A stretch of 64,000 nt of DNA. Origin: an uncultured virus (IMG/VR IMGVR_UViG_3300008108_000027) (taxonomy: Duplodnaviria > Heunggongvirae > Uroviricota > Caudoviricetes). The position numbers and the translations under genes were made by a program. A model generated the notes under the pieces. That model saw nothing but the letters and a program-made list of their open reading frames with translations. It had not been told where the DNA came from and searched no databases. The stretch lies in the IMG/VR virus record IMGVR_UViG_3300008108_000027; one strand, given 5' to 3'. Shown here one piece after another: positions 7,172-60,000 of the stretch (its first letter is position 1; each line of letters opens with the position of its first letter).

Positions 7172-7345
7172 ATGGGATGCGGATGTAAAAAAAACAGACC
7201 AGTACAACAACCTCAACCTCAAGTACAGGTTCAGGTGCAAGAATCAACAACTAATCAACCAAATCAATCTGGTGTTCAATTAACTGAAGAACAACAAAAA
7301 CAAGTTGATGTCATCATGGATAAATTAAAACAATTGAACTCATAA
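7172..7345 (+). CDS. Small Gln-rich protein with an MGCGCK N-terminus (57 aa)
   Basis: Hand-translated; TATTTAT at 7148-7154 upstream and a hairpin immediately downstream. Confidence 0.75.
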   Translation: MGCGCKKNRPVQQPQPQVQVQVQESTTNQPNQSGVQLTEEQQKQVDVIMDKLKQLNS

Positions 7346-7379
7346 TATCGGACAACTAAAAATTGTCCGATATATTTTT
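7345..7379 (+). terminator. Rho-independent terminator
   Basis: 11-bp stem ATATCGGACAA/TTGTCCGATAT followed by ATTTTT. Confidence 0.65.
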
Positions 7380-27141: not shown

Positions 27142-27190
27142 ATTAAAAGTAAAGTCTTTATATAAATACTTTTATATGGTTTAATTAATA

Positions 27191-27219
27191 AAAAAAGGAG
27201 GTTAAACCTCCTTTTTTTT
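27191..27219. terminator. Bidirectional rho-independent terminator
   Basis: AAAAAAGGAGGT-TAA-ACCTCCTTTTTT, between the redox genes and the fibre genes. Confidence 0.85.
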
Positions 27220-36062: not shown

Positions 36063-36657
36063 TTTTAAAAAATATATTAAAGTTAAATGAAGGGTTTATA
36101 TCTGTATAAATATCTGAAAAATTCGATTTACATGTTATCCCCCTAAAATTTCGAGCATTATTAAAAAATCCTTGTGAGGGTACTATTTGTTTATTTATAC
36201 CGTGATTATCACATAGTTTTTCACATAATTCGGAAAGGACAGATAATTGATCGTCGTTATATTTGTCCCAAAAATAGTGGTTTCTCCAATTTTTAACGAA
36301 CGGTTCAGATCTATATGGGTCTCCGATCCAATTATTTAAAAACCCATTTATTGTATTTTTATTTAACCACCCAAGATTTTCAATTGCTATTTTTATTATT
36401 TTTTTATCTAATTTATCGTCTTTAAATGTTCTTGAACTATAATTTGTGTCAAAAATTTGATATACCATACCTAATTTAGAGACAACAAAATGGGGCACAT
36501 CTTCATATGCCCCATTTTTACGATATCTTATTTTATTTATGAAATCATCTACTCTTCTTTTGGTATCATAAAGTAGAATTTGACTTTTTTTCGTTTTTTT
36601 TCTAATTATATTAATTTTCGAATTATCTAAATTTTCTACGTTGTGAATTATTAACAT
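36034..36657 (-). CDS. N-acetylmuramoyl-L-alanine amidase (Amidase_2)-fold protein with degenerate zinc ligands
   Basis: PHFVVSKLGMVYQIF, IAIENLGWL, YNDDQL..L..L, TDINP; the expected His ligands are replaced (ILLYDT, GITCKS). Confidence 0.7.
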   Translation of the reverse strand: MLIIHNVENLDNSKINIIRKKTKKSQILLYDTKRRVDDFINKIRYRKNGAYEDVPHFVVSKLGMVYQIFDTNYSSRTFKDDKLDKKIIKIAIENLGWLNKNTINGFLNNWIGDPYRSEPFVKNWRNHYFWDKYNDDQLSVLSELCEKLCDNHGINKQIVPSQGFFNNARNFRGITCKSNFSDIYTDINPSFNFNIFFKNAEQTNVKL

Positions 36658-40012: not shown

Positions 40013-40687
40013 TTACTTTTTCTTTTTGACGATTTCATCAATGATACCATACTCCAAAGCCTCTTCTGAAGACAACCACAAATCCCTTATTGTGTCAGTT
40101 TTTATCTGATCTGCAGTCTTTCCACAATATTCCCCAAGTAATTCAAACAATTTATCATTTAATCTCTTCCATTGTTTCATGTCTATCTCAGCATCTTGAA
40201 TATTACCTCTGAAACCACCACTAGATTGGTGTAACATTGTTTCGGAGTTCTCCAAAGAACCTCTTTTCCCTTTGGTTCCCGCCCCTAATAATACTGACCC
40301 CATTGATGCGGCCATTCCCGTATTAATAGTTCTAATGTCGGACTTAATATAATTCATAACATCAACCATTGATAACCCAGATTTAACACTACCACCTGGA
40401 CTATCAATATGCATGGTTATGTCATTATAATCTATACTATCCAAAAACATAAGTTGTGCTTGGACAATTGTGGACATGTGATCATTTACCTCACCAGCAA
40501 CCCATATGATACGTTCCATCATTAATCTTGAAAAGACATCCATTGCGGTAACATTCATTTGTCTTTCCTCGAGAATGTAGGGGGTTAAACTATTTTCTAT
40601 TCTTTTGTTATAGTAGTCCATTTTTAATGAACCGATACCGTGATCTTTGGCAAATAAACCGAAATTTTTTAAGTCTTTTGGTGTCAT
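40013..40687 (-). CDS. clpP: ATP-dependent Clp protease proteolytic subunit
   Basis: DVFSRL, SPGGSV, GMAASMGS (Ser), MLHQ (His), RDLWLS..EALEYGIID. Confidence 0.96.
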   Translation of the reverse strand: MTPKDLKNFGLFAKDHGIGSLKMDYYNKRIENSLTPYILEERQMNVTAMDVFSRLMMERIIWVAGEVNDHMSTIVQAQLMFLDSIDYNDITMHIDSPGGSVKSGLSMVDVMNYIKSDIRTINTGMAASMGSVLLGAGTKGKRGSLENSETMLHQSSGGFRGNIQDAEIDMKQWKRLNDKLFELLGEYCGKTADQIKTDTIRDLWLSSEEALEYGIIDEIVKKKK

Positions 40688-43954: not shown

Positions 43955-44021
43955 AAATTATAATTTTTTTAATCAATAAATTATACACAAAAAAAACGAT
44001 AAAAAAAAGAATATTGCCGGA

Positions 44022-44297
44022 TTATTCGTCATATAAATCTTTAACTTCTTTTTTTATTATTATTGGTTCCACACTTTTTGGTTCGGATGTTAATACTGGT
44101 TCGGATGTTAATACTGGTTTAGTAGTCAATTCTTTATTTAGATGAATTGATTTAGGTAACTCACCGTATTTAACAATTGTAAAACCTTTTTCGAAAACTT
44201 GTTTCGCGAATTTCACCACATCATTAATATTATTCAATTTACAATATTGAATGAATTCATCATCCAATATTAACGTGTTCTTCGGTTTCATTTTCAA
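44022..44297 (-). CDS. Hypothetical protein
   Basis: 91 aa, overlapping the sbcD end. Confidence 0.65.
   Translation of the reverse strand: MKMKPKNTLILDDEFIQYCKLNNINDVVKFAKQVFEKGFTIVKYGELPKSIHLNKELTTKPVLTSEPVLTSEPKSVEPIIIKKEVKDLYDE
44080..44119. repeat. 18-bp tandem duplication (PVLTSE x2)
   Basis: GGTTCGGATGTTAATACT twice plus GGTT. Confidence 0.9.
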
Positions 44298-45078
44298 TAT
44301 CTTTAATGTCTTTTATTTTAAAGTGTAGAAATGGTTGTTCATTTGGTAGATCAAAAAATTCATAATTATCTTCTTCTACATCATATACACCATACCCATG
44401 ATGTTTCACTGTTTCACCAAAATTTTGTTGTATTAAACTACCAACCATTATTGCCTTACCACCATTAGGTAATTTGAATTGTTGTCTTTTATGTATATCT
44501 CCACATAGTAATAAATCAAGATCAACAAAATTTAATCTGTCATATGCATCTTCAAATTCAAACCCCAAATCTGTTGATAACCCCTGTATTGGTCCGTGAA
44601 ATAAACCAACATAAAAATGATCCTTTTCTTTTGTGAATACAGGTCTTTGATTATGTTGATACAAAGAATATACGATCCAACTAACATTATCATCAACGTA
44701 TTCACCACTATCTTTATAATATGTAATCCATTCATTTTTTAATAATTCAACAACCGGTGATATACTATCTAATCGTTGAACGTTGTTTTCCAAGAAGTCG
44801 TGGTTGCCGGGTATAATAACAACTTTACCAAATTTAGTTAATTCATTTAAAAACCAACTCGTTAACATTAATTGTTCATTTGATATGTTAATCTTTTGAT
44901 GTGCAATATCTCCCGTGATAACTATTCTTATATCAGAAGGTCCAATATTATCATCATACCAATCAACAACTTTTTTAGCAAGTTCATCTATCAATATTTC
45001 AAATTGTCTTTTATATAGATCATGTAATTGAAATGTTCTGATATGTAAATCAGAAATATGTATAATCTTCTTTATCAT
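44260..45078 (-). CDS. sbcD: SbcD/Mre11/gp47-like metallophosphoesterase nuclease
   Basis: HISDLH, GDIAH, PGNHD, FHG, GDIHK, GSLIQQNFGE. Confidence 0.92.
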   Translation of the reverse strand: MIKKIIHISDLHIRTFQLHDLYKRQFEILIDELAKKVVDWYDDNIGPSDIRIVITGDIAHQKINISNEQLMLTSWFLNELTKFGKVVIIPGNHDFLENNVQRLDSISPVVELLKNEWITYYKDSGEYVDDNVSWIVYSLYQHNQRPVFTKEKDHFYVGLFHGPIQGLSTDLGFEFEDAYDRLNFVDLDLLLCGDIHKRQQFKLPNGGKAIMVGSLIQQNFGETVKHHGYGVYDVEEDNYEFFDLPNEQPFLHFKIKDIKDIENETEEHVNIG

Positions 45079-45932
45079 CTTTTAATATATTTTGTTAAAT
45101 CCAAATCAAATACTTTTTTATTTACATCTTGTGGTACTTTATATTCAACAAACGTACCATCATCTTTTAATAAAACAACAACACAACCAAGTAATCTTAA
45201 ATTTTCATACTTAGTTCCTTTTAACATTTTAAGGAAAAGTCTGGCATATAATGGTAATTGTAAATAATAATGACCTAACGCCGTATCGTGATAGTCTTGA
45301 AACGGTGAATATAATTTACCCGTATAATGTTGTACTTCAAAATTTTTAGGTTGATTTGTTTTCCAATCGGTAACTACCAACCCATAATCTGTTTTATCTT
45401 TATTTAACATTAACCAAAATTTATCTGGTTGTCCTGTGTAACCTAATTCATTGTCACCTAAAACCATTTCAGTATCTAATAGTATCGCACCTCTTTCGTT
45501 CATTAAATCTAAAAAATTCTTACCTGCCGAAATCATACTATCCCCTTTTTGAATTTGGTTTTCATCACATTCAAATATTGGTTGTCTAACTTCTTTATAG
45601 TTACCGTATCTTTCAACAAGTTCACTTTCTAAAATATAATGAACTCTACTACCCATATTAGTGGAAGTATTACCCGCCTCTCTCCATTGTTCCTGTAATT
45701 TTTTCGCTTCAATCGGATCACCATTACACATTCTTAAAGCGGTTCCTTCGGCATCAAATGGTTTGTAGAATTTTTTAATTAATTTAGATACAGATGGAAA
45801 ATTACTTTTTATTTTACCGTCAGTATCCACCATATAATAAATGTGTTTATCCTCCACAAATGTTAATTGTAGTTCTTTTTGTCTTTTTGAAATAACTTCT
45901 TTTATTTCGTCAGAAATTTGTTTTAAATCCAT
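45075..45932 (-). CDS. PD-(D/E)XK exonuclease
   Basis: PSVS, GSRVH, E......GQPD....DWKT, YYLQLPLY. Confidence 0.85.
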   Translation of the reverse strand: MDLKQISDEIKEVISKRQKELQLTFVEDKHIYYMVDTDGKIKSNFPSVSKLIKKFYKPFDAEGTALRMCNGDPIEAKKLQEQWREAGNTSTNMGSRVHYILESELVERYGNYKEVRQPIFECDENQIQKGDSMISAGKNFLDLMNERGAILLDTEMVLGDNELGYTGQPDKFWLMLNKDKTDYGLVVTDWKTNQPKNFEVQHYTGKLYSPFQDYHDTALGHYYLQLPLYARLFLKMLKGTKYENLRLLGCVVVLLKDDGTFVEYKVPQDVNKKVFDLDLTKYIKR

Positions 45933-45933
45933 T

Positions 45934-46875
45934 TTAATCTAATTGATGTATTTTATAATCGTCTAATTTTCCTTGTAAGTCGGCAATGTCTTTGTCGCCT
46001 TCTAATTTTATAACAAATACTTTACTAAATAATTTACCACAATTTATTCTGTGATAAAGTTTTTCTGTATCTAACCAAGCATCGGGGTCAAGTACTAAAA
46101 TTATTTTTTTTGCCTTTTCATATAATAAATTAAATATTTTTTCACTCATAAATTTACCCAATAACGGAATTGAATTTGGGATAAATATACTATCAAAAAC
46201 TCCTTCAACAATATAAATCGGTTCATCCCATTTTATTAAATGTTCATTCCAAACTATCGTTTCTTTTGGAACATCGGGATTTTTATATTTCAATTTTGTT
46301 TTTGACAAATACGAACGAGCAATAAAATAATTTAGATTTTGTTCCTCATCATATGATGGTATCAATATTCTGTTTTCATAATGACCAGTATAACAAAATC
46401 CAATGTTATACTTTTCAATCATTTCATCTGTTATGTTTCTTTTTTTAAGATAACCCATTGCTTGTTTATAGTGATGAGTTAATTTTAAACCAGATGAAAT
46501 ATTTTTAAATGGTACGAATTCTTTTGGTAATCTTACTTTTTTATATGTTCTATTTTTAAAATCCTCAACTTCTTCTGGTTTTAACAATTGATATTTTTTC
46601 AATTGTTTTGGTGTTCCGAATTTTTTAATAAGTTTATATATTGATCCGTGTGTTTCATGGGTTTCACAACAAACCCAACATTTATAAACTGAATATTTGT
46701 AATTAACCTCTAAGTTACCTTTACCGTCACCAGAATCCAAACCTTTAACATCGTATGAACAAACAGGACAGTCAAAGGACATTTGGTATCTGTAATCATT
46801 GTGTGATCTACATTCACCAAGAATATCTTCTAATATCTCTATTATCGGTTCGTATTGTACTTCTTGTTCGGTCAT
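45934..46875 (-). CDS. dnaG: DNA primase (Zn finger plus TOPRIM)
   Basis: CPVC...CWVC, YL..R.I, RILIP, KYKNP, VEGVFD, LDPDA; likely start ATG 46875 (MTEQEV). Confidence 0.9.
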   Translation of the reverse strand: MTEQEVQYEPIIEILEDILGECRSHNDYRYQMSFDCPVCSYDVKGLDSGDGKGNLEVNYKYSVYKCWVCCETHETHGSIYKLIKKFGTPKQLKKYQLLKPEEVEDFKNRTYKKVRLPKEFVPFKNISSGLKLTHHYKQAMGYLKKRNITDEMIEKYNIGFCYTGHYENRILIPSYDEEQNLNYFIARSYLSKTKLKYKNPDVPKETIVWNEHLIKWDEPIYIVEGVFDSIFIPNSIPLLGKFMSEKIFNLLYEKAKKIILVLDPDAWLDTEKLYHRINCGKLFSKVFVIKLEGDKDIADLQGKLDDYKIHQLD

Positions 46876-46902
46876 TGTCAAATGATAAGAAAAAAAAGTG
46901 AT

Positions 46903-46939
46903 AAAAAAAAATCCCCCGGAGACACCAACTCCGAGGGAT
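46903..46939 (-). terminator. Rho-independent terminator
   Basis: ATCCCTCGGAG-TTGGTGT-CTCCGGGGGAT followed by T8. Confidence 0.85.
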
Positions 46940-46972
46940 ACCAACCAACATGTATTTCTACATGCCCCGTCT
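46903..46972 (-). ncRNA. Candidate small structured RNA (GAAA-tetraloop hairpin plus terminator hairpin)
   Basis: TATTTAT at 46975-46981, CATGTA-GAAA-TACATG, 11-bp GC stem and a U-run; GC-rich island. Confidence 0.55.
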
Positions 46973-47026
46973 ATATAAATATAGTTGAATAATTATAAAA
47001 TGTAAAATTTAAGTTGCCGGATTTTT

Positions 47027-47110
47027 TTAAAAATTTAATATTGCTCTATTAACACCTATTTTCATTGTTAATTCAGTTGGATTATCTGAACTATAATCTA
47101 ATTCACCCAT
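47027..47110 (-). CDS. 27-aa mini-ORF resembling a tail-tube C-terminus (possible remnant)
   Basis: MGELDYSSDNPTELTMKIGVNRAILNF, 1 nt after the RuvC stop. Confidence 0.45.
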   Translation of the reverse strand: MGELDYSSDNPTELTMKIGVNRAILNF

Positions 47111-47111
47111 A

Positions 47112-47717
47112 CTAATTTTTTTCTAATTTAATCATGTTAACATAACCAATAACAGCAGTTGCGGCATCACTCATATCAAAGTTTTCTTTCTTTAATTTGT
47201 TATTTTTATCATATAACCACTTAACATCTGCACAAACCGCATTTACATGTTCCCAAATTACTTGTTTTTTATCAATGTCTTTTGGATAACCACCAAACAA
47301 AACATTTTTACCTTTGTCATTTTTATTAACTAAATCAGGAAATGCAAATTTTCTTGCATTATATGTTGATATAAAGGTGGGCACAATTCCCAAAGTATCA
47401 TAAACTATTTTACAAATCATTGTATTATACCTCAATAAAGTCTGAACGGTATAAATGTTATTTGAATTTAACAATGGTTCTTCGATGATTACACGAAGGA
47501 TACCCATATCTTTATAATTCTCGATATGTTTTTTGAAGGCATCCGCCTTCTTCAATAATTCCTCAAGTTTGTCTTCAGGTTGAGGTTTTATTTTTGGAGA
47601 AAAGTGTGTTAATTCCAATAATTTAGAACCAGTTAAATCAAATAACGCAAATCCAATTGTCTTTGTTGATATATCCAAACCTAATATCTTTGGACTATTC
47701 TTTAATTTTATACTCAT
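47112..47717 (-). CDS. ruvC: RuvC-like Holliday junction resolvase
   Basis: ILGLDISTKTIG, IIEEP, DKK, FDMSDA. Confidence 0.8.
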   Translation of the reverse strand: MSIKLKNSPKILGLDISTKTIGFALFDLTGSKLLELTHFSPKIKPQPEDKLEELLKKADAFKKHIENYKDMGILRVIIEEPLLNSNNIYTVQTLLRYNTMICKIVYDTLGIVPTFISTYNARKFAFPDLVNKNDKGKNVLFGGYPKDIDKKQVIWEHVNAVCADVKWLYDKNNKLKKENFDMSDAATAVIGYVNMIKLEKN

Positions 47718-47755
47718 AAAAGAATATATACGTGATATTTTTAAAAATGTAAAGT

Positions 47756-49861
47756 TTAGAAGTCTATTTTGATTGCAAAAACTTGTGTTCCTCTTCTAAC
47801 AATTGGTTTCGCTGATTTAGCAACAACCAAGGCTTCTTTATTACTATCTAAAAGAGCAATCTCAGTTATCTTTTTATCTTCACCAGCAACATATGTTGGG
47901 TTCTGTGTTTCGGTAAATTGTGTACTTGGTAAGTTAACCAAAAAATTCATAACCTCAATGTCACTTGATCTAACAACTTTTATACTTCCAGGAAACGGTT
48001 GTTCATCACCAAACTTTGGTTGCGTTGATGGTTCATGTACAATGTAACCATTACCAAAATAATTGTCTATCACATATTGTGTTCCGCTGTTATATTTTGA
48101 AAAATTAACAATAAATGAAATGTCTCTTAAATTTACGGGGTCAAGAAAATTAACTCCGTTACCTCCCGCTTCTGTTGTAAAATCAATTTCAATCCAATCA
48201 TCAGGTACGGGTCTTTGACCTGTTTTTGTTATTTGTACTAAAATTTTAAACTCAGTACCAACGAATCCATCAACAACATTTGGAAGAGTTGTTTTCATAT
48301 AACTAAATGCGGTGGTATCGAATTTAACAACTAAACTTGTTGGTATTGTTGTGCCCTGTATTTTTGAATAATAATTACAAGGTAAACCATTTAAACCTTT
48401 ATCTGAATTGGTAAAAGTATATGTCACCCATATTGTTTGATCTGTTGATCCTGTTAAAACTGAATTTGGTGCTGTGGTGTCACTTGGTACCAAATATAAT
48501 TTTGGTGCATCTAAAGTATATCTTCTATTGCTTCTGTAATCTAATAAAGCAACTAATTCTTGGTCATCAAAAATTATTGTTTTTTTAGTGTAAAAAACTT
48601 TACCAACTCTATTATTTTGTTCATCAAGTAAGTATCTATATGGTATATTTGAATTACCATTTAAGATTGGTGATGGTGTCGTGATTTCATAATCAACTGT
48701 ATCCATATTAAATAACGCTCCAACAACATTACTTGTATTTCTATGGTAACAAATAAATGGTATAAATACTTGGAAGTATTCTAAATCAGTTAATGGTAAA
48801 CCATTTTCATCTTCTAATATTGAATCATTAACATTGTTATTGGTACTTAAATAATCATCATATTTAAAGAATCTTTCAGGATCAAATCTTATATCACCTA
48901 ACTCTGAATAATGTATAACCGCCAATACCCTTTGTTCTTCAGGTGTCACGGTTATTGATTCACCAAAAGAATTTTTGTACGATGTGGTATTATTAATGGT
49001 TTGTCCGGATGATGTTGTGTATCCTAAAAATTGTTTTGTTGATATGTGTTGATTACTTGTGAAACCTGTTAAGTTTATGTTTGTTAAACCACTATAACCT
49101 ATAGGATTCTCATTCCACACAACATTTAATGTCCACGGATCGTGTTGATCCATTGGATCAATTGGTTGTGGTAAACATATCGGTGCAACACTAGTTGATG
49201 GTGGAAATTCTATTTGACATTTATTACAAACAACTTGTGCAAAACCTGTTAAAGTTGATAAGTCTGGTGTGGGTCTATCAAGATATATTGTATTTCCACT
49301 AATACTTAAAACTTTATAAATTAAACTATTTGATTGTCCGGTTATTATTGGAACATTTGGATCGGTCCCACCAAACTGATCGAATACCAACGTAATATAT
49401 TCACAAGTTTGAAATGTATCTCCAGATAAAACATCAATAGAAGAAGAACCATTAATTGTGGATATATCGATTCTATCCGTCACACACATTACCTTTGTTC
49501 CTATACAATCAATATCATCATATTCAATATATTGTGAAACAAATCCCGCGGGACCCATCGGATTTCTTAAAATGTCAGTATATGAATTTTGAACAGGGAC
49601 CCCATAGGTTGTTGTTGTTACTGTTGTGTCTATTTTGTATGGATATTTAACAACTGTTTCTTTATCGTGTGGGGCAAAAACTTTTTGAAATGGTTTTTTA
49701 AAAGTACCATCTAAATTTGTAAATGGTGCACTATAATCATATTCGGAATCACCAATTTGGAAATATGAAATTACAAAATTTCCCTTAGCGATTGAATTTC
49801 TACCTTTTTTTGTTACTCTGGCCGATAAAAACTCAGAGTTATTTTCTGTTAAAAAGCTCAT
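47756..49861 (-). CDS. Virion structural protein (baseplate/tail)
   Basis: ARVTKKGR...F.IGDSE.DY N-terminus; ITEIALLD...LVVAK.AKP C-terminus like tail-collar domains; TATTTAT upstream. Confidence 0.7.
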   Translation of the reverse strand: MSFLTENNSEFLSARVTKKGRNSIAKGNFVISYFQIGDSEYDYSAPFTNLDGTFKKPFQKVFAPHDKETVVKYPYKIDTTVTTTTYGVPVQNSYTDILRNPMGPAGFVSQYIEYDDIDCIGTKVMCVTDRIDISTINGSSSIDVLSGDTFQTCEYITLVFDQFGGTDPNVPIITGQSNSLIYKVLSISGNTIYLDRPTPDLSTLTGFAQVVCNKCQIEFPPSTSVAPICLPQPIDPMDQHDPWTLNVVWNENPIGYSGLTNINLTGFTSNQHISTKQFLGYTTSSGQTINNTTSYKNSFGESITVTPEEQRVLAVIHYSELGDIRFDPERFFKYDDYLSTNNNVNDSILEDENGLPLTDLEYFQVFIPFICYHRNTSNVVGALFNMDTVDYEITTPSPILNGNSNIPYRYLLDEQNNRVGKVFYTKKTIIFDDQELVALLDYRSNRRYTLDAPKLYLVPSDTTAPNSVLTGSTDQTIWVTYTFTNSDKGLNGLPCNYYSKIQGTTIPTSLVVKFDTTAFSYMKTTLPNVVDGFVGTEFKILVQITKTGQRPVPDDWIEIDFTTEAGGNGVNFLDPVNLRDISFIVNFSKYNSGTQYVIDNYFGNGYIVHEPSTQPKFGDEQPFPGSIKVVRSSDIEVMNFLVNLPSTQFTETQNPTYVAGEDKKITEIALLDSNKEALVVAKSAKPIVRRGTQVFAIKIDF

Positions 49862-49888
49862 ACATTAATAAATACATTTATTTTTATT

Positions 49889-51976
49889 TTACATTCCCGT
49901 ACATTGGTTTAATCCATAAATTTTGTAATTATTCGTACCAATAGTAATTATTTGTGGATTTGTTGTTAATCCAATTCCATTTACAGCCAAATTAATTACT
50001 CTTAAACTAGCAACACCGATTTCACTAACACCTGTACTATCAGTCGCCGATGTGTTTCCGGCAGGTAATAATAAACTAGGTAAGGTCGCGTTTCCACTTA
50101 CAAATGTTGTACACGTCGGATCACTAAATCTTCTAATGACAAAATCGAAATCTAATAAATCTAAAGTCGTCCCCGCAATCACATTGACTGTTCCATTAAT
50201 AAATCCAGAACCATCACTTTCACCAAATGCAACAATTTCAGCGGTTATTCCGGTTGGTGTTGGTGTACTAGTTGGTGTTGGTGTACTAGTTGGTGTAGGT
50301 GTACTAGTAGGAGTTGGAGTGCTAGTCGATGTAGGTGTTGGTGTACTAGTAGGAGTTGGTGTACTAGTTGGTGTTGGTGTTACGATGGGTAGTGAACTGC
50401 AAAGTGACAAATTAAATCCTAAGTTATTTAGTGAGTTAATTATCAGATCTGCATAATATGATGGTGTTGACGCCGCCAAAGTATTTAATTCATAATTAAT
50501 GTTATTTCTTCCAGATAAACCATATGTTGATCCAGTATATAGTGTTGATAAGGATGTATCACCACTAACAGCCTGAATAAATGAACCATACTCGGTACTT
50601 CCAATAACCCTAAATATGGTTGCAAAATATCTCCCAAATGGTAATTGATTTAATGTACTGGTTAAAGCAACCATATCTGTATCATACTGAGGTGTTCTGG
50701 CGGTTTCCCATGATGAGACACCCCATTCTGCACCGTATGGACTATTTTCATCCGAAAAAACTAAATTAATAACAGTGGTTATTGATGGTGAACTACCTGT
50801 ATTATTCATCCATTGGAATATTCGTTCGTCACTAATTGATGTGATACTAACTCTTTGATCATATAAGACAGAATCATTATTAAAATAAGGTAATAAACAT
50901 GGTTTTAATATTCCACTGTTCATATTGATTAATGGAGATAATGTTGAATTCATCGATCCGGATGAATCAAAATAAATATTTATTTCCGTATTTTCATCTA
51001 TTTCTGGTATGGTCAATTCATAAGTAAAATCACAAGGTAATGTTGTTCCTGTTACTTGAATATCACATGATGGTGGACATTCCTCAAATCTACTTGAAAA
51101 AATATCACCAACATTGGATGTGATTGCAGACCACATATACGTTGGTGGATTACTTACAGGATAATCAACATCATATGATAAAATAGAATGTAATGTACCA
51201 TTACCAATATCATCTCTTACTTCCCATCTATTATTAGATTCATTCCAAAATACATAATAATCATCACAACATATTTGATAATATGGTCTTTCATTGTAAA
51301 CACCCATTGGATAATATAGTGTTGTATTATATTCTGTATCTGAACTATAACATAAATGATTAAAGCATACGGGGCATCCAATAAAAACAACCCTTACTTG
51401 AAATCCACCTTGTTTTTTTGGATCAGTTAATGTATTATTTTTTATACTACCGTCCCCATGTTCAAGAAAAATATAAACAGGTTTGTGTGTTGGACTAAAA
51501 TTTTTAAATTCATAAATAAACCCAGTAGATGGATTTGTTGTTGCCGTTGTTACAAATGTTGAAGCCGAAATTTCATATGTGAAACCTGTATATATACGAT
51601 AACTATTTGGTACACCGTTAACGACAGATGAATGATTACCAAAATTTGTTGCACCTGAAACCAAATCATATATTGTAACACTACTATTAGTACAACTACC
51701 TGTGGTACTAACATCAAGATAAAAATCTACAGTATCATAACATTCATAAACCTTACTATCATTAGTATATATTGTAGTTATTGTTGATGTACCATCAACA
51801 ATATCCGTTACTTTTATAAAGTACCTCGTATCAAATTCCAAATTTGTTATAACAACAGATGATGTTAGGCTTGGAAATGCCCCAAAAAACACATATGAAC
51901 TTGATGACCCTCCACTATATTCTACAATAAAGTTATGTGGTATTTGTAAATTATATAACCTAACATTTAAACCCAT
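49889..51976 (-). CDS. Virion protein with a VWA-like domain and a Pro/Thr tract
   Basis: IYFDSSGS (MIDAS DxSxS), FSDE; (TPTPTS)n. Confidence 0.65.
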   Translation of the reverse strand: MGLNVRLYNLQIPHNFIVEYSGGSSSSYVFFGAFPSLTSSVVITNLEFDTRYFIKVTDIVDGTSTITTIYTNDSKVYECYDTVDFYLDVSTTGSCTNSSVTIYDLVSGATNFGNHSSVVNGVPNSYRIYTGFTYEISASTFVTTATTNPSTGFIYEFKNFSPTHKPVYIFLEHGDGSIKNNTLTDPKKQGGFQVRVVFIGCPVCFNHLCYSSDTEYNTTLYYPMGVYNERPYYQICCDDYYVFWNESNNRWEVRDDIGNGTLHSILSYDVDYPVSNPPTYMWSAITSNVGDIFSSRFEECPPSCDIQVTGTTLPCDFTYELTIPEIDENTEINIYFDSSGSMNSTLSPLINMNSGILKPCLLPYFNNDSVLYDQRVSITSISDERIFQWMNNTGSSPSITTVINLVFSDENSPYGAEWGVSSWETARTPQYDTDMVALTSTLNQLPFGRYFATIFRVIGSTEYGSFIQAVSGDTSLSTLYTGSTYGLSGRNNINYELNTLAASTPSYYADLIINSLNNLGFNLSLCSSLPIVTPTPTSTPTPTSTPTPTSTSTPTPTSTPTPTSTPTPTSTPTPTGITAEIVAFGESDGSGFINGTVNVIAGTTLDLLDFDFVIRRFSDPTCTTFVSGNATLPSLLLPAGNTSATDSTGVSEIGVASLRVINLAVNGIGLTTNPQIITIGTNNYKIYGLNQCTGM
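50252..50380. repeat. Pro/Thr/Ser-coding tandem repeats
   Basis: GTTGGTGTACTAGT-type 18/24-bp units. Confidence 0.9.
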
Positions 51977-52016
51977 GATATAATAAATATAAATTGTTTA
52001 TTTTTAATAATAAAGT

Positions 52017-52682
52017 TTATGGAACCGCAGCACTTGATGTTAATCCTACTGCTTCGGCATATTTTAACCAAGTTTCAACTCCTGCAAATTTTTCATTTTG
52101 ACAATCATATATCATTCCTTTATCAAGTAATTTTAATAAAAATAATCCTCTAAAATTTTCACTTTTGGTATCCAGATAATCAAGTAAACATTTTATAGAA
52201 ATATTACCTAATAATACTACACCTTTATCTAAAATCACTTTAGTGGTATTATATCCAAATTCAGAAATAATTCTATTTAATACTGTATTAAAATCTAAAT
52301 ATGGGCAATCATTTACTATATTTATACAATTCTGAAATGGTGGATCTCCCGTTGCACCTAAAGAATTTAAAAGTATGTCATAAGAATTAATATTACCATA
52401 AGCACTAATACAACAAGTTAAACCACTTACTGGACATGTACCATCATATGTTAAACTAACCGCTTCCGCATATTTCAAAAAAGTTTCAATCGACGCAAAT
52501 ACTGTGGTACCCGATAGATCACATTCATCACAACATATAGTTTGAGTATATGCTGATGTAGAAAATCCTTCATCTAATAATTCATCCCAAGTACTTAAAA
52601 CATCATCATCGGTAGGTGATGGTGAATTATCTTCACAATAATTTATCAAAAATTCAAGAATATTATATTTTCTATTACTCAT
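52017..52682 (-). CDS. Cys-rich hypothetical protein
   Basis: Internal repeats ASIETFLKYAEAV/AGVETWLKYAEAV and LDKG. Confidence 0.7.
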   Translation of the reverse strand: MSNRKYNILEFLINYCEDNSPSPTDDDVLSTWDELLDEGFSTSAYTQTICCDECDLSGTTVFASIETFLKYAEAVSLTYDGTCPVSGLTCCISAYGNINSYDILLNSLGATGDPPFQNCINIVNDCPYLDFNTVLNRIISEFGYNTTKVILDKGVVLLGNISIKCLLDYLDTKSENFRGLFLLKLLDKGMIYDCQNEKFAGVETWLKYAEAVGLTSSAAVP

Positions 52683-52694
52683 ATATAATTATTT

Positions 52695-53657
52695 TTAAGG
52701 TATAATAGGGCTGGGTGGTGGTGTTGTTAAGTCTTCAATTGTTTTATTAAATCCTCCATGATCACCCATTCTATAATCACGACCATGACATAAAAAGAAA
52801 ATACCACTACTCATCCAATCTTGGATTGTATCTCCAATCGTATTAATTCCGTCATAATTATTTATGGTGTTACCGGTATAAAAATTTATTAAGTTATCTA
52901 ATCCGGTTGAATTTCCGATTGTACCCACTTCAAAAATTCCAATCTCAATTAAACTACTAAATTTAGTTGGATCTAGAGTTTTTAACAATTGAATTTTTTC
53001 TTTAAATCCATTGTTACATGAAGAATATTTGTATACCACACCATCTATTTCTTCATCAGGTGGAATTGCATTTGATATCCCGACAGTGGGAATGTAATCC
53101 AATAAATATGTTTGTGCCGACATAGCGTAGTTTATACAACAACCTGTTAAGGCATTTATATACGTTTTATCATTTGGAACTGAAGCAGTCTCAAACATTG
53201 ATAGGTACGTGTAAGTGTTACCTATATAATAAAAATCATTACATGGTGGACAAATTAGACATGATTGTGATTGACCCAAACCATTACTTAAAAATACATC
53301 GGTAAGCCAATCTATCGGATTTGTTAAACTTGGTTCTAGTGATGGATTTTCATCTAATTCGATTATTGATTTTAATGTCAAATCAAAAATAAAATCAAAT
53401 GGATTTATTGGTTGGCAATATTCAATGTCATGTGCCTTAACTTTAATTAATATATTTCCACATTCTTCACACGAAAGTTTTAGAAAATAATGTTGTAAAG
53501 TATTCGATCCGAGTACTAAATCTGTTATTTCAAAAGTATGTTCAAATGAATTTGTAACATTGGTTGCAATCAAATTAACCGTTGTACTTGATGTTAATCC
53601 GGAGTATATATCGAACGCTTGTCCTGTTGGTACTAAATTTATTGTTGTTTTAAACAT
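52695..53657 (-). CDS. Cys-rich hypothetical protein, partly paralogous to the next gene
   Basis: CPPC, GCCINYAMSAQTYL. Confidence 0.7.
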   Translation of the reverse strand: MFKTTINLVPTGQAFDIYSGLTSSTTVNLIATNVTNSFEHTFEITDLVLGSNTLQHYFLKLSCEECGNILIKVKAHDIEYCQPINPFDFIFDLTLKSIIELDENPSLEPSLTNPIDWLTDVFLSNGLGQSQSCLICPPCNDFYYIGNTYTYLSMFETASVPNDKTYINALTGCCINYAMSAQTYLLDYIPTVGISNAIPPDEEIDGVVYKYSSCNNGFKEKIQLLKTLDPTKFSSLIEIGIFEVGTIGNSTGLDNLINFYTGNTINNYDGINTIGDTIQDWMSSGIFFLCHGRDYRMGDHGGFNKTIEDLTTPPPSPIIP

Positions 53658-53675
53658 ATCATATTTTTTATTTTA

Positions 53676-54623
53676 TTAACAAGTACCTCCACTGTAATTA
53701 ATATTACATGGTATACCTGTTGTATATATTTGTAAATCAGAAAATGAGAATAATGTTGTTGGCCAAGTTTTACTACATACCAATGTCTCTGATGGTGATC
53801 CAAAAGTACCTGATGGTATAACAACATCTTGAGATGTGTCATCACAACAATCTGTTATTGTAACAATTTTTGTTGATCCTGCGTTATATATCCTGAAAGA
53901 TCTACATTCACTTGAACAATCAAAAGTGGGTATTGATGGTTGTGAATTATAAATAATCTGTGCACTTCCAGTAAGATCATAAACTCTATTATTACTTACC
54001 CATCTACCAATTGATTGTGTTGATGTGACATAATTCGTACATAAACACAATGGATAAAATAAAGCATCACAAGGATTACTTGGGTCTCCACAAAGAACAA
54101 GTGGATTTGAATAATTCACTGGTATACCTAAAGATGATGAATTTATTAATAGTTGTTGATTATTAGATATGGCCCCTGATGGTATACATACGTTACCCTC
54201 AATAAAAACGGCATTATTTAACCATGGTAACCCATTCCCTGTACCTAAAGATGCGGTATTAGAAAGAAGTAACCCAACTTGACCACATTCAAATGATGAT
54301 GGACAATTAACAGATGGTACAACCGGTGGTGGTGGTGTTATTGTTGGTGTACTAGTAGGTGTCGGTGTTGCCGTAGGTGTTGGTGTACTGGTGGGGGTTG
54401 GTGTTGATGTTGGTACAGGTAAATTATTGGGTATTTCTAATGTACATTGTTTTTCAATACTAGAAAAATATATAACATACGTACCAAACACATAATTACT
54501 AATATATGTGTACGGTAATACTTGTGATCCTAAATTAAAAGTACCGCCAGTATCGGGGAAAAAAGTTATTTCTCCTGTTTCCCCCTCATAATTTTGTGTT
54601 TTTATTATTATTTCTTGTATCAT
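53676..54623 (-). CDS. Cys-rich virion protein with a Pro/Thr tract
   Basis: N-terminal ~60 aa shared with 54653..56992; PTSTPT repeats. Confidence 0.7.
   Translation of the reverse strand: MIQEIIIKTQNYEGETGEITFFPDTGGTFNLGSQVLPYTYISNYVFGTYVIYFSSIEKQCTLEIPNNLPVPTSTPTPTSTPTPTATPTPTSTPTITPPPPVVPSVNCPSSFECGQVGLLLSNTASLGTGNGLPWLNNAVFIEGNVCIPSGAISNNQQLLINSSSLGIPVNYSNPLVLCGDPSNPCDALFYPLCLCTNYVTSTQSIGRWVSNNRVYDLTGSAQIIYNSQPSIPTFDCSSECRSFRIYNAGSTKIVTITDCCDDTSQDVVIPSGTFGSPSETLVCSKTWPTTLFSFSDLQIYTTGIPCNINYSGGTC
54325..54420. repeat. Pro/Thr-coding tandem repeats
   Basis: PTSTPTPTSTPTPTATPT...PPPP. Confidence 0.85.
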
Positions 54624-54652
54624 CTTTTATTAAATACCTAAAATTATTTTTT

Positions 54653-56992
54653 TTATGGACAACTAAAAGTATTTAATATCACACCACCACTATCAACTTG
54701 TATTGCTAATCGTGATGTTCCAGAACAAAAAGTTGTCGAATTAACAATAACTATCCAATTTCCACCACCATCAGACGGAGCGGTTAATCCCGGGTCATCA
54801 TACATTATCATACCAGCACTAAATACAGGTATGTCTCTATAAAAAGCTCTTGCACATGTTGATCCCGCAGCACAAGCCAATCCCGATGTGGAATAAGTAC
54901 TCACATTTCCGGCGAACACATATGAACTTGGTGGTGTACTACTAACCGTAGGAGTTGAGGTACTAGTTGGTGTTGGTGTACTAGTAGGAGTTGGTGTACT
55001 AGTTGATGTAGGTGTTGGTGTTGCAGTAGGAGTTGGAGTACTAGTCGATGTAGGTGTTGGTGTTGCAGTAGGAGTTGGAGTACTAGTCGATGTAGGTGTT
55101 GGTGTTGGTATTATAAATGATCCACACTGTTGTAATATACCAGATGATCCCGAATATATTACACCTATAGTGTAAGTGTCGGATGGTAATCCCGAAAAAG
55201 TGTCATGGAAATAATTCGTATTAAAAGGTGAACTATATACATCTTGATCGATAATTGTTCCTGATGAATTTAATGCACATACAATTATTTGTGTTATTGA
55301 TGGATTATTTTTTACAGAATTTTCAATACCAACTTCATAACCAAACTCTGTTGAATTTATATCACTTTGTATTGTAAAAGGACAATTTAATGTATATGTT
55401 ATTGGGCAACCTGAAGTTGGGTCCACACTAAAAAATGGTGCAACATAGTCGGGATCACCAACTGTATTATTTTTAATTTCACCTGTTGGGGTATTTGTGT
55501 TTATGTCATATTTTTCAAGTGTGTCAACTATTACATCACCCGTGTTTTCCAATCCGGTAACCGCGTTATTGTAAAAAACAACACTACCTTCACTTCTGTC
55601 TACTATTACTCCTCCCCAACCTACTGTGGGACCAGGACTTACTGACATTAAACTATTTGTCCCGTATTCATTTGTAACTTGTTCAATACCGGATAGATAA
55701 TAATTAGGTATCAATCTTTTTATTTCATATGTGTCTCTATCAATTTCATAAGTTTGATATATTACAGTTGCATCTCCATTCACATTATTAATTAATTGAG
55801 TTGCTATGTATAACTTACCGCTAACGGGATCTAAATTAAAAGTATAAACACCAACATCTTTACCTTGTAATCTTTTATTAAAAATAATTGTTGTTACAAT
55901 TGTTGCTCCCGTATTTGTTGAATTTGGATTTAAAACCCACATTCTTCTTCCACCAATATCACTTACATAAACTTTGTTTTTTTCTATGTCATAAAATAGA
56001 TATTGCCAATATCTACCAGATCCACCGGGAACTGAGGTAGATGATCCTGGTAATGTTATATAGGTTATAAAATTGAAATTATCATCAAAAACACCGATAT
56101 TACCAACTGTACCTGAACCCGAAGTTGACGTTACCCATAAATATGTTTGAGAGATCCCTGTACCAATTTCACGTGCAGTTGGTGCCCCTCCAACAAAATA
56201 AGTGTTTAGTTGAGTATTTCTTGGTATTATTGTTTTTGGTAAAGAAGGATTTTCTCTATTTATTCTTATTAAATCACCTGTTGGTGTTATTCCTGAAAGT
56301 GAACCGCCTCTAATGTCACCATATATAAAATTTTCTGAAACGTAAAGAAAATTTCTTTCGAATATATTATCACTACCGTATGATATTTGTGTTATGGTGT
56401 TTCCGGTTGTGTCATAAATGATCATTCCTGTTATAATAGTATCAGTTGGTAACGTATTAAGTGGCGTTTGATTTGTACCTGTAAAATATATTCTCTTGTA
56501 TGTTTTATCAAAAGTGCTAATATACAATGCAGGTGCTCTCAACCAACTTACATCACCAGTTGCACCAGTGATAAATGTTACATTTGATACGGATGTAGAT
56601 GCTGTGGTTGGTGTAAACCAATATATATTACCCCTAAGATTGTCATCCGCGTCTGCAACCCAAACTCTATTTGTATCATCGTCATACCAAACATAAGATG
56701 GTGATGATATACCAGATAGTGAATTAGTGATTAAAAAGTTTGCACTTTGTTCACATGTGAAATCTAAAATTCTCCAAGCAAGTTCGGGTGACGTATCTAT
56801 TAAAGTTGACGAACATGTTATACCAAAACCAGAAAAATATAAAAAATATGTACCATAGGGATACGTTGACTCATATTGATAAGGTATAACATGTGAACCT
56901 AAATTAAATGTTCCGCCGGTATCTGGATTAAATGTTATCTCCGCAACTTGGCCATTATAATTTTCACTTGTTAATGTAACATTATATTTCAT
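54653..56992 (-). CDS. Virion protein with a beta-propeller-like region and a Pro/Thr tract
   Basis: YDDDTNRVWVAD, FDKTYKRIY, YDIEKNKVYVSD and LDPVSGKLY blade repeats; long TPTPTS tract. Confidence 0.7.
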   Translation of the reverse strand: MKYNVTLTSENYNGQVAEITFNPDTGGTFNLGSHVIPYQYESTYPYGTYFLYFSGFGITCSSTLIDTSPELAWRILDFTCEQSANFLITNSLSGISSPSYVWYDDDTNRVWVADADDNLRGNIYWFTPTTASTSVSNVTFITGATGDVSWLRAPALYISTFDKTYKRIYFTGTNQTPLNTLPTDTIITGMIIYDTTGNTITQISYGSDNIFERNFLYVSENFIYGDIRGGSLSGITPTGDLIRINRENPSLPKTIIPRNTQLNTYFVGGAPTAREIGTGISQTYLWVTSTSGSGTVGNIGVFDDNFNFITYITLPGSSTSVPGGSGRYWQYLFYDIEKNKVYVSDIGGRRMWVLNPNSTNTGATIVTTIIFNKRLQGKDVGVYTFNLDPVSGKLYIATQLINNVNGDATVIYQTYEIDRDTYEIKRLIPNYYLSGIEQVTNEYGTNSLMSVSPGPTVGWGGVIVDRSEGSVVFYNNAVTGLENTGDVIVDTLEKYDINTNTPTGEIKNNTVGDPDYVAPFFSVDPTSGCPITYTLNCPFTIQSDINSTEFGYEVGIENSVKNNPSITQIIVCALNSSGTIIDQDVYSSPFNTNYFHDTFSGLPSDTYTIGVIYSGSSGILQQCGSFIIPTPTPTSTSTPTPTATPTPTSTSTPTPTATPTPTSTSTPTPTSTPTPTSTSTPTVSSTPPSSYVFAGNVSTYSTSGLACAAGSTCARAFYRDIPVFSAGMIMYDDPGLTAPSDGGGNWIVIVNSTTFCSGTSRLAIQVDSGGVILNTFSCP
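54930..55110. repeat. Pro/Thr/Ser-coding tandem repeats
   Basis: Includes a near-identical 42-bp unit in tandem. Confidence 0.9.
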
Positions 56993-57017
56993 TATACCTA
57001 AATATATTTTTTTTAAT

Positions 57018-60000
57018 TTATGTTGTAAAGTTTAAACATATTTCATAATATGAACCGAGGTGGAACAACGGATCATCAGTTGTAAAATCAATAAACAATG
57101 TGTGTGTTGTTCCTGCCGATAAGAAATATGGTCCAGGTACAATGATATTCTGAATAACAGGACCCATTGTACATCCTTGATTCAAGTCTTGTGATGTTGC
57201 AGATGCTAACAATGTTCCATCAAGATAGAAAGCTATGTTTTCATAACCCGTATCTTGTAATTCGGCTAAACCACTAAAACTTAAGTGTAAATAAGTATCA
57301 ACCGGACCTACTGTTATTGTTGCAGTTGCGGTACCATTTTGTGTTATATCACACGTACCACCACAGTTTAATGAATCCGCAATATTAAATCTAACACATA
57401 AATTATTTGGTGATACTACCCACTCAGCCGTTTCGCAACCCGTGACTCCTGACGTATTCTTAGTTGTTGTCCATATTAAACCAGATACAGGTAATGTTCC
57501 TGTTGGCGTAGATGTACTAGTAGGTGTTGGTGTAGATGTACTAGTAGGTGTTGGCGTACTAGTAGAAGTAGGTGTTGGTGTAGATGTACTAGTAGGTGTT
57601 GGCGTACTAGTAGGTGTTGGCGTACTAGTAGAAGTAGGTGTTGGCGTACTAGTTTCAGTTGGTGTTGGTGAAGGTGTTGGGGTTGGAGTTGCGGTAGGTG
57701 TTGGTGTGGGTGCTAATTGTAACTCAGCGGTACAACACTCTGGTATTTGTGATGCACCGTAAACCACTAATGACGGAATTGTTTGTATTAATGTTGGTGT
57801 ATGTGGATATGTTAAAGGTATATTATATATTTTACCATCCACGTTCGCAACATATAATGAACCATTATCTTGGAATATTCCATATGGTGTTGTGGCAGTT
57901 GTATTTAAATCTGAACTTGTTTCAAATAAACCTGTATTATAATCATATTGAACTAAAAATACACCACCTAATTTTGTTATTGTTATTAAAATTTTATTAT
58001 TTGTAGTAAACATTATATCTCCGGCAATTGACTCAGTTGGTAGTAATGAAAATATTACATTTACCGTAGCCACAGAATTACTTACGTCTATTTCTATGAT
58101 TTCCCACAAACCAGATATACCATTGTATGATGATGACAATAATTTAGTATCATTTATTGCACATAATCCAGCACCAATATTTATTCCACTTGGTAAAGAT
58201 ACAATCCTATTAAATGTTGTCGACCAAGGATTAGTACTTATATCCCATTCATATATAAAGGAATTATATAACCACATCTTATTTAATGTGTGAGCAATAT
58301 CTGCGGAAAATATAAATGTACCTAAATTGGTTTTAGTGTTTGAAGAATAATCATAATAATAAACATCATTAGAATCATCATTAATTAAAACACTACATTC
58401 AGGTAATATTAGATTTGATGGTATTGAACATTCACCTACTGATGAGATTCCAGATAATGGTAATGTGGAACTCGTGTTACCAGTCCAAATGTATGTATCA
58501 TTAGAAACAGGATATTCACTATTGTTACCTAAGTAACCATATATTTGACCGCCAACTGTATTTGTGAAAAGGTCATAAGTTTCCCTATGTTCCCATATAG
58601 TTGTACCACTATTCCAAACAACATATGTAATAAAACCAGGAATAGAAAGACTAATTAACATATAATTAATTTTACCATCATAATATGTGTAAGATTGTCC
58701 ACTAAAAATAAAATTAGAACTGTTTCCGGAAGTTAAATAAAAGCATAATTCAGGTAAACAATCATTTAACTGTGAATTTACTAAACCAAATTGATCTTCA
58801 ATACGAATCCAATTTTCTGTCGGTTCATTTGTTGGTGTGTCAAGGTTAACATTTAAATAACTTAAAACACCATATACAGTATCGGGTATTTTGTTTACAA
58901 CATCATAATTAGAATAGTTTTCCCATCTTGTTGTACCACTATTCCAAACAACAACACCGAATGGATAAGTCATGCCTGTTCCTGTATTTGTGTAACCTAA
59001 ACTATAGTAGTACTTACCATCATGGTATCCTGCAGGGTATCTAAGATTAACATTAGATCCCATATTACCAAAAGTTTCACCAGGGTCGTATGTAAAACAT
59101 ACTTGTGGTGGACAATCATTTACTGTTGTAATGTACGCTCCAAGTTCAGGATTATAATCATAAACCCATTGATATTGTGAACTACTAATTGGTGTGTTTC
59201 CACTATAATTTAAATACGAATATAATGTTCCTGATGTTCCGACATTTACGTCAAAGTTTTCCCAATTTTCCCATCTAGTTGTGCCACTGTTCCATATCAA
59301 ATAATATGGGAAATTTACATCAGTAGATTTATAATAATTTCTATTGTTATACACACCAAATATTTCGTAGATATATGAAGTATATTGTGTTGTTGATGAG
59401 TATGTTCCTATTAAACAAATGTCACTACATATTTCATCACTACAATCATCCGGTAATTGTTGTGTTGGTGGTATACAATTTCCACTAATTGAATTTATTA
59501 TTTGGTAACTTGCAGATGGTAAATCAATAATATTCCAAGAATATGATCCTTCAACGATTGGTAAATTTGGATTTTCATTATATTGGTACAATGTACCTGA
59601 ATTTAATGATGATCTATATTCCCATCTATTATTATTTATCGACCAAGAAACATAATAAACAAACGTATCGTTTTTAGGACTAAAAATATATGATGGTTTT
59701 TCATTAACGATAACCCCCGGACTAACTGTTACAAATTCAGGGTTAGAAAACGCTTCGGCAGCAATTTCAAAACATATAGTTGGTTCGGTAAAATATTCTG
59801 TAGGGCAATCTTCAATATCACTATAGAATTGTTGTGGACAATCTTCTATTAAATTAGAAACATGTGTTTGATATTTGTGTTGTAGTAATACTTGATGACT
59901 ATCGTTACCATTAAATATTATTAAATCTTCACCGACAGGTACATCTCTACCAGAAGTTTCAAAATTAAAATTATAATACATATTTGGTTCACAGTAATCA

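Follow-up and report, generated by a model that had tools for sequence, protein, structure and literature searches.

We analysed a 64,000-nucleotide (nt) stretch of DNA, hereafter the window, from an uncultured virus of the Caudoviricetes (IMG/VR record IMGVR_UViG_3300008108_000027). The subject of this report is a short element on its minus strand, placed between a gene for a RuvC-like Holliday-junction resolvase and a DNA primase gene. The window has 29.4% G+C, and its open reading frames (ORFs) lie nearly all on the minus strand. The upstream neighbour of the element is the resolvase gene (47112..47717, minus strand; 201 amino acids, aa), which matched PHROG phrog_159 (E 3e-06); a Pfam search with its product gave no match. 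The downstream neighbour is the primase gene (45934..46875, minus strand; 313 aa), which matched PHROG phrog_47 (E 7.7e-40) and Pfam DNAG_N (3.5e-07). All the parts described below sit in the 236-nt gap that ends at the primase ATG (46875). We give about an even chance to the element encoding, in a single copy, a phage small RNA that stands alone, measures about 67 nt and acts through two exposed motifs.

Architecture of the element and its predicted promoter

Read along the minus strand, the first fold of the element is hairpin 1 (46947..46966), which has six Watson-Crick pairs, two basal G·U pairs and a GAAA loop. It is followed by the linker GGUUGGU (46940..46946, minus strand; family consensus UUURGUUGG[U]), which is single-stranded and was unpaired in both the minimum-energy fold and the consensus fold. 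Next comes an intrinsic-terminator hairpin (46911..46939, minus strand) with 11 pairs, 7 of them G-C, and the loop UUGGUGU (46928..46922). The U tract (46903..46911, minus strand) follows directly after its stem and consists of T9, including one paired T. The arrangement is that of an intrinsic terminator, a G+C-rich stem-loop and then T8-9 on the transcribed strand. The first-pass annotation of this DNA, made from the letters alone, had proposed a small RNA here, and the parts it named were all found in place: TATTTAT at 46981..46975, GACGGGG at 46971..46965, the CAUGUA/GAAA/UACAUG hairpin at 46964..46949 with its extension by two G·U pairs (46966..46947), and the 11-bp GC-rich stem with T8, or T9 counting the paired T. 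The GC island was likewise real, as the element has 45% G+C compared with 29.4% in the window.

Folding of a 91-nt stretch gave a minimum free energy of -28.8 kcal/mol, compared with -18.5 ± 2.9 kcal/mol for 200 shuffled sequences (z = -3.5; 1 of the 200 shuffles equalled the native value). The terminator has the most G-C pairs among the terminator-like sites listed in scans of 1-40000 and 44000-64000. Three more strong hairpins, at 27190-27218, 7345-7373 and 36487-36518, have flanking A runs and T runs, are terminator-like in both directions and stand at operon borders or strand switches. The G/U motifs of the element were absent from the other terminators in the window, these three included. 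As noted earlier for this site, no credible ORF is present: the ATG codons in hairpin 1 of the window are not conserved, and relatives have other stems in their place, such as CTTGTA or CCTGTA, so that no reading frame is kept.

A -35-like hexamer, TTTACA (47001..47006, minus strand), is separated by a 17-nt spacer from TATATT, with 10 of 12 positions matching, and the -10 or Bacteroidota-type -7 box TATATTTA (46976..46983, minus strand) contains the TATTTAT motif. In 49 distinct relatives (sampled as described below), the -10 hexamer was TATATT in 37, TATACT in 7 and TATAAT in 3 (47 parsed). The hexamer 17 nt upstream of it was TTTAC[AT] in 22 of the 49 and T-rich in most others, and the -10 ended 8-12 nt before a conserved [AG]CGG block in 47 of the 49. 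These consensus matches predict that the element has its own conserved promoter at a fitting distance. The sigma-A box of Flavobacterium psychrophilum, TAnnTTTG, is placed at -12 to -5 in the accessible part of PMC9723704. From this spacing we infer an RNA start at about 46971 and a length of 66-69 nt; the predicted small RNA would occupy 46903..46971 on the minus strand, with its 3' end in the U tract.

About 30 nt upstream of the -10, and before the -35, lies the word GGCAAC(T)AA (window ~47013-47018, minus strand), which is kept in most relatives. In some of them it forms the last RuvC codons and the stop (..SGN, then stop), and in others it lies past the stop; its conservation therefore goes beyond coding and holds at the level of DNA or RNA. 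It could serve as a regulator site or as an upstream element of the promoter.

At the other end of the gap, a promoter-like box, TATCATTTG (46879..46887, minus strand), stands 3 nt before the primase ATG. In relatives, the T run is followed by (A/G)TCA, a T-rich stretch and then a TATATTT-type box. In most relatives, among them L031, L042, L050, L062 and L064, TATATTT[ACGT] lies 3-5 nt ahead of the primase ATG, with 8 nt in two. Judged by this spacing, the TATCATTTG box, if it acts as a separate promoter, would give a nearly leaderless primase mRNA, and the U tract of the RNA terminator would then form its upstream part. Leaderless mRNAs are put at 5.5% in F. psychrophilum (accessible part of PMC9723704). 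The earlier observation that TATTTAT precedes genes elsewhere in the window was confirmed above background: in a crude ORF map, the motif lies at most 40 nt upstream of 14 of 73 ORF starts, with about 0.022 expected per 40-nt stretch (about ninefold over background). TATTTAT-type boxes stand 4-30 nt before those 14 starts. If such boxes are -7/-10 boxes, several genes of the phage clade would have leaderless or near-leaderless mRNAs.

Conservation, covariation and fixed motifs in relatives

A first IMG/VR search with the primase protein gave 28 loci. Five of these were identical to the window, and three further groups, whose primases are 74, 70 and 64% identical, retain the element with visibly compensating changes; it is missing in the L010 group (65% primase identity) and in all loci at 53% or less. 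Using a DNA pattern on the terminator loop, about 20 further distinct versions were found, all between an ORF of about 200 aa and one of about 313 aa. Since the loop pattern forces the loop sequence, an unbiased sample was drawn through the primase. An alignment of ten primases (A1) led to 549 confirmed IMG/VR relatives, and the best 80 of the 549 (65-100% aa identity), with 49 distinct upstream regions, were taken as the sample. The element lies between the RuvC-like gene, where relatives have an ORF of about 200 aa, and the primase in 80/80 sampled loci and in 49/49 distinct upstream regions. The distance from the U tract to the primase ATG is 26-28 nt in the relatives with a called ORF. Eight distinct relatives (L208, L145, L159, L162, L164, L175, L197 and L206) have about 15-25 extra bases and a second T run between terminator and primase, as though the U-tract region had been duplicated or extended there.

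Covariation was examined in the ruvC-primase regions of these relatives. The lack of conservation and covariation that the first-pass annotation had named as refuting its reading was not what we found, as hairpin 1 and the terminator both covary strongly. RNAalifold, applied to 51 distinct sequences, gave hairpin 1, with its base lengthened by G·U, G·U and A-U pairs, and the terminator; double changes occurred at 14 of the 17 consensus pairs. Matches to a covariance model (R1) were then realigned (57 matches, 56 distinct; alignment A3), and 500 shuffles served as control. Standard pairs made up 97.1% of 991 pair cells in the 56 distinct sequences compared with 64.0 ± 1.1% after shuffling, cells changed on both sides numbered 311 compared with 93 ± 8, and the covariation score was 0.868 compared with 0.241. 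None of the 500 shuffles reached the observed value for standard pairs, double-changed cells, further pair types or covariation score. The number of pairs with a double change (15) was equalled by 300 of the 500 shuffles and does not discriminate. When the 3' partner was slid by 1-3 columns, 34-61% of the cells were paired (maximum 60.6%). A3 is fitted to the model, which favours structure; the count based on a MAFFT alignment agrees with it.

In hairpin 1, double changes were seen at 4 of the 7 main-helix pairs and at both inner pairs, and 99.2% of the main-helix cells were paired. In the terminator, they were seen at all 9 modelled pairs. Over the whole structure, G·U or U·G cells numbered 161 and A·C or C·A cells 2 (61 and 2 without the three basal pairs). 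This excess of G·U over A·C shows that selection acts on a fold of the sense strand, be it RNA or single-stranded DNA, and neither on a cruciform nor on the opposite strand.

The unpaired positions were counted in 55 distinct full-length sequences. The loop of hairpin 1 was GAAA in 30 of 55 and of the GNRA type (GAAA, GUAA or GCAA) in 36 of 55, the rest being longer and A/U-rich. Because this loop varies while the stem is kept, the stem matters and the tetraloop does not; of the GAAA hairpin pointed out earlier, it is thus the stem that proved conserved. The linker contains GUUGG in 52 of 55, mostly as UUUAGUUGGU or UUUGGUUGGU, and shows G/A changes at two positions, which are compatible with pairing to U or with the lack of any pairing. 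The 5' block (A)GGACGGGA(C) is well kept, and its GGGA pairs with the UUU ahead of the linker. The terminator stem has turned over completely in sequence, its 5' arm being C-rich in 28 and G-rich in 27 of the 55. The loop that it carries reads UGGUG in 55/55 and GUGGUGU in 51/55, and is also present in all 49 unbiased regions; C or T follows GTGGTGT in 46/55, and a T run of at least 7 is present in 52/55. A fixed loop inside a changing stem exceeds what an ordinary terminator needs. The first-pass annotation had singled out the linker and had missed the terminator loop GUGGUGU. The two exposed GKUGGU copies, as far as the alignment goes, look like a working surface.

The element occurs once and is not arranged in tandem. 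In the window, R1 found one copy (69.6 bits, E 4.5e-15), the next match reaching 15.7 bits. It also found one copy in the nearest record (G001, 287 kb), in which a core-only model (R2) gave no extra copy. On 11 loci of distant primase relatives, in which RuvC adjoins the primase, R1 gave no match at E <= 0.01. In the records of 5 distant relatives, it gave weak matches of at most 24 bits, which are gene-end terminators after UUUAG(G)UUGG-like words. The distant, complete 325-kb genome G007 has two shorter versions 2.3 kb apart (at 318.7 and 321.1 kb; L344 1503-1574 and L345 1501-1556, both minus strand). In each of these paralogous terminator-promoter cassettes, a promoter-like box and the linker AAUUGGUUU are accompanied by a hairpin whose loop contains UGGUG and by a U7 run; hairpin 1 is absent. 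They share about 45 nt of similar downstream sequence and stand among small ORFs of unassigned function, away from the primase. From this we take the core of linker and loop to be older than hairpin 1 and the primase context, and also more portable. A loose search of genome contigs with the pattern GTTGG..GTGGTGT..T7 gave nothing family-like among the matches listed (at least 120), and this pattern is too unspecific to bear on bacterial genomes.

Candidate functions of the element

Known RNA classes were searched for a match. In the window, Rfam 15 gave none at the gathering score; the best were PyrR RF00515 (24.0 against 54 bits), NsiR1 RF02399 (21.6 against 39 bits) and His_leader RF00514 (20.7 against 49 bits), and these sub-threshold matches ride on the terminator. 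The loci of 10 relatives gave no Rfam match at E <= 1. ARAGORN, run over the whole window, found 0 tRNA or tmRNA genes, in agreement with the earlier statement that the element does not resemble a tRNA. The proposal of a stand-alone small RNA has held as far as structure, predicted promoter and terminator are concerned, all of them conserved; of the particular functions suggested with it, namely decoy, antitoxin or packaging RNA, none gained support.

A stand-alone small RNA is the reading that we prefer because of the anatomy of the element: a promoter, a 5' hairpin, a single-stranded conserved stretch and a terminator. According to this reading, a host-type promoter (TTTACA, 17 nt, TATATTTA) would start transcription at about 46971. 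In the folded RNA, a short tail, (A)GGAC, would come first, followed by a protective 5' hairpin under selection in its stem and not in its loop, by the exposed linker UUURGUUGG and by a strong terminator whose loop always displays GUGGUGU. Its two GKUGGU motifs would act in trans, either pairing with C/A-rich targets (ACACCA or CCAAC) or binding a protein in two copies. The terminator of the RNA would also end transcription from the RuvC-like gene, and its U tract may overlap the upstream part of the separate promoter for the almost leaderless primase mRNA.

We looked for targets of the two motifs in the window. Most of the exact complements fall within 50.2-55.1 kb, where the coding sequence is repetitive. 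There, ACACCA/ACCAAC words recur with a spacing of about 42 nt at 54937-55106 and 50261-50381 (minus strand), inside ORFs 54653-56992 and 49889-51976, which suggests tandem peptide repeats. These two ORFs and ORF 57018-63776 (2252 aa) have a common phrog_15511 domain near their C-termini. The best duplex with a start region in the window was that of the gene starting at 40687, in which AUGACACCAAAAG faces the loop sequence UUGGUGUC (-12.6 kcal/mol). This gene (40013-40687, minus strand) encodes 224 aa of unassigned function with 77-84% identity in the best 80 loci, exceeding the conservation of the primase, and its N-terminus is mostly MTPKDY.

Several points weigh against a stand-alone small RNA. 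The complementarity at 40687 is explicable by the conserved MTPK N-terminus, and as a general target the gene was rejected: its homologue on the L006 contig starts with MELK, where the complementarity is gone and the loop unchanged. The primase start region has no conserved complementarity to the motifs. A cis-acting element would likewise agree with the strict synteny and with the constant 26-28 nt that separate U tract and ATG. The case for promoter and terminator function is made up of consensus matches, and the RNA data for the locus consist of low-depth contigs. The latter came from four metatranscriptome runs, labelled freshwater or lake metagenomes, with contigs at a depth of about 3. 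Two contigs, X1 (46931-47175) and X2 (46966-47123), are identical to the window and run from the RuvC 3' end across the promoter into the element. X1 ends inside the terminator hairpin (46931), and no contig of the four runs bridges 46911-46875, a weak hint of termination at most; contigs cannot show ends or levels, and at this depth a stretch without cover says nothing. At most, they place the region in RNA libraries, which may contain DNA, and suggest some transcription entering from RuvC. Since these contigs cross the proposed promoter, the element receives at least some RNA from its upstream side, unless they derive from contaminating DNA.

Some of the same observations would suit a cis-acting gate on the primase, in which the terminator stops most RNAs and a factor reading the linker and loop allows read-through, thereby timing the primase. 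The models for such a gate are the phage lambda PR'-6S RNA-tR' arrangement with Q, and the nut and put sites. The element abuts the primase in all 80 sampled loci at a fixed 26-28 nt, its fixed unpaired motifs suit a protein site, and RNA contigs enter it from upstream. Nevertheless, we consider a gate unlikely. In relatives, the primase ATG is preceded at 3-5 nt by a promoter-like box of its own, distant relatives express the primase from a short RuvC-primase spacer that has no RNA, and the versions in G007 are away from the primase. Moreover, the terminator arms swap while the upstream RNA is constant, which argues against a simple conserved antiterminator, and no covarying alternative helix was seen by inspection, no dedicated search having been made. 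The GAAA and GGUGGUGU loops are not complementary, which speaks against a gate and likewise excludes a kissing loop between hairpin 1 and the terminator. An attenuator controlling read-through into the primase, which the first-pass annotation had offered as its alternative, is weakened by these findings. Neither an alternative pairing nor dependence of the primase on the leader promoter was found: a second box is predicted in front of the primase, and distant relatives lack the RNA.

The strand-specific structure fits single-stranded sense DNA as well as it fits RNA. A signal at the DNA level, namely a transcription-activated origin or priming site at which the displaced sense strand folds, would account for it, and we regard this as very unlikely. 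In the specific version that we considered, to which we attach a slim chance, the promoter would open the duplex, and the sense-strand hairpins would offer the GTGGTGT(Y) loop and the GTTGG linker to the primase encoded 30 nt downstream, for loading or priming. Known cases of this kind are the T7 primary origin, with its promoters, AT-rich tract and primase site, and the ssi hairpins of plasmids; in such a scheme, what the promoters and the AT-rich tract do at the T7 primary origin would fall to a short G-rich transcript together with the T-rich tract. The invariant loop with C or T after GTGGTGT in 46/55, the T/A-rich tract after the hairpin and the constant adjacency to the primase would agree with it. 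On the other hand, the terminator design is perfect, its U tract being 7 or longer in 52/55, which points to formation of an RNA 3' end. The GC skew has no turn at 46.9 kb, and the G007 versions are again away from the primase. The trinucleotide sites of the T7 and T4 primases enter this comparison as general background only.

It is also quite improbable that the locus holds merely a terminator for RuvC and a promoter for the primase, with hairpin 1, the upstream boxes and the motifs being incidental. The terminator does match the consensus, RNA contigs run from RuvC to it, and the weak model matches in relatives are ordinary gene-end terminators with UUUAG(G)UUGG-like words. However, hairpin 1 covaries (99.2% paired, 4/7 double changes) and yet would be useless for termination, the loop is fixed in 55/55 while its stem changes, a full -35/-10 promoter is conserved at the right distance, and the motifs are missing from the other terminators of the window.

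A binder of tRNA 3' ends, in which UGGU and UGGUG would pair with the ACCA-3' and CACCA-3' of uncharged tRNAs for sensing or sequestration, is extremely improbable: UGGUG in 55/55 and UGGU in the linker, both unpaired in the consensus fold, would allow it on general knowledge of tRNA ends, but a duplex of four to five pairs is weak, the motif is found in the loop of the terminator and not in an antiterminator, there is no domain like the Stem I with specifier loop that accompanies the tRNA-pairing UGGN bulge in T-box leaders, a UGGU/GGUGGU word is all that the element shares with these leaders, and the Rfam T-box families gave no match even at E <= 10.

Other candidates were tried and rejected. 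Pairing of the linker with a conserved upstream word, GGCAACTAA, showed no covariation. The GG tracts vary, with G/A changes in the linker, which makes a G-quadruplex unlikely. The loop has an invariant U where the complement of the Flavobacterium Shine-Dalgarno sequence needs A, so that a mimic of the anti-Shine-Dalgarno sequence is unlikely. An RNA guide for the RuvC-like protein is unlikely too, as distant relatives keep RuvC without the RNA and 200 aa are too few.

Host setting, known phage RNAs and significance

Upstream of the promoter, a 27-codon ORF (47027..47110, minus strand) lies between RuvC and the RNA promoter; it is specific to the window and is probably filler outside the RNA element. 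Including this ORF, about 95 additional bases separate the RuvC stop from the GGCAAC word in the window. In relatives, the RuvC stop leads directly to the GGCAAC motif, or an unrelated 68-aa ORF stands at this spot (L031, L042, L072 and L100). The interval looks like a hot spot of small insertions.

No phage in GenBank matched positions 45900-48000 by DNA similarity. By primase, the nearest cultured phages are Flavobacterium myoviruses, at 32% identity. Shine-Dalgarno sequences are missing before the genes, and distant relatives have TAnnTTTG-like boxes. Taken together, the nearest cultured phages, the missing Shine-Dalgarno sequences and these boxes suggest a host among the Bacteroidota. The contigs of the relatives span 100-330 kb.

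Among known phage RNAs, the oop RNA of lambda is a 77-nt transcript with its own promoter, pO, and terminator, tO, antisense to cII. Like oop, the RNA proposed here would be a short non-coding phage transcript with a host-type promoter and an intrinsic terminator, set amid replication and recombination genes. While oop acts on the overlapping cII mRNA, no gene overlaps the element on the opposite strand, and no nearby complement was found to the two G/U-rich motifs. The c4 RNAs of P1/P7 and the CI RNA of P4 are antisense RNAs processed from a leader, with targets in the same operon. These small phage RNAs also have two short exposed stretches (a loop and a single strand), but no paired target sites were found here in the window. 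In lambda PR'-6S RNA-tR' and StxS of the Stx phages, a promoter is likewise followed by a strong terminator (~70-200 nt) ahead of timing-sensitive genes. The downstream genes of lambda and the Stx phages have no promoter of their own and are Q-dependent, whereas the primase here has its own predicted box and no Q-like factor or site is known.

GibS and other intergenic trans-acting small RNAs of Bacteroides thetaiotaomicron, as given in the accessible part of PMC7366714, resemble the element, whose setting is probably Bacteroidota as well, in having a hairpin at the 5' end, a conserved stretch that is single-stranded and an intrinsic terminator. A TAnnTTTG-like box and genes without Shine-Dalgarno sequences are also common to both settings (PMC7366714, same part). 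In contrast to GibS, the element is encoded by a phage, has no sequence relation (no Rfam match) and carries a second conserved motif in the terminator loop.

In the literature searched, we found no description of this RNA. The catalogue of Fremin et al. 2023 (PMC10690425), which was searched by description and not by sequence, may contain it unnamed. Its accessible part reports 10,006 candidate structured RNAs from IMG/VR, 1241 of which contain a predicted terminator, and some candidates lie at most 25 bp upstream of TOPRIM/primase genes (PMC10690425). These candidates come from the same data source and are the same kind of object; in that part of the source, none is named or explained so as to cover the present RNA (PMC10690425). 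We class the element as a well-supported candidate for a phage-encoded small RNA; what sets it apart is selection on the sequence of its terminator loop.

The small RNAs of phages with Bacteroidota-like hosts are almost unexplored, and in the sources searched we found none from uncultured freshwater giant phages. The comparative support for the present element is unusually clean: it comes from dozens of distinct sequences that covary heavily, from wobble pairs specific to one strand, and from a predicted promoter and a terminator that are both conserved. The element is a short and easily synthesised object for asking how such phages use RNA around their replication genes, and its covariance model marks a whole clade of uncultured phages. 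It also opens the question of what G/U-rich seeds recognise in hosts without Shine-Dalgarno pairing.

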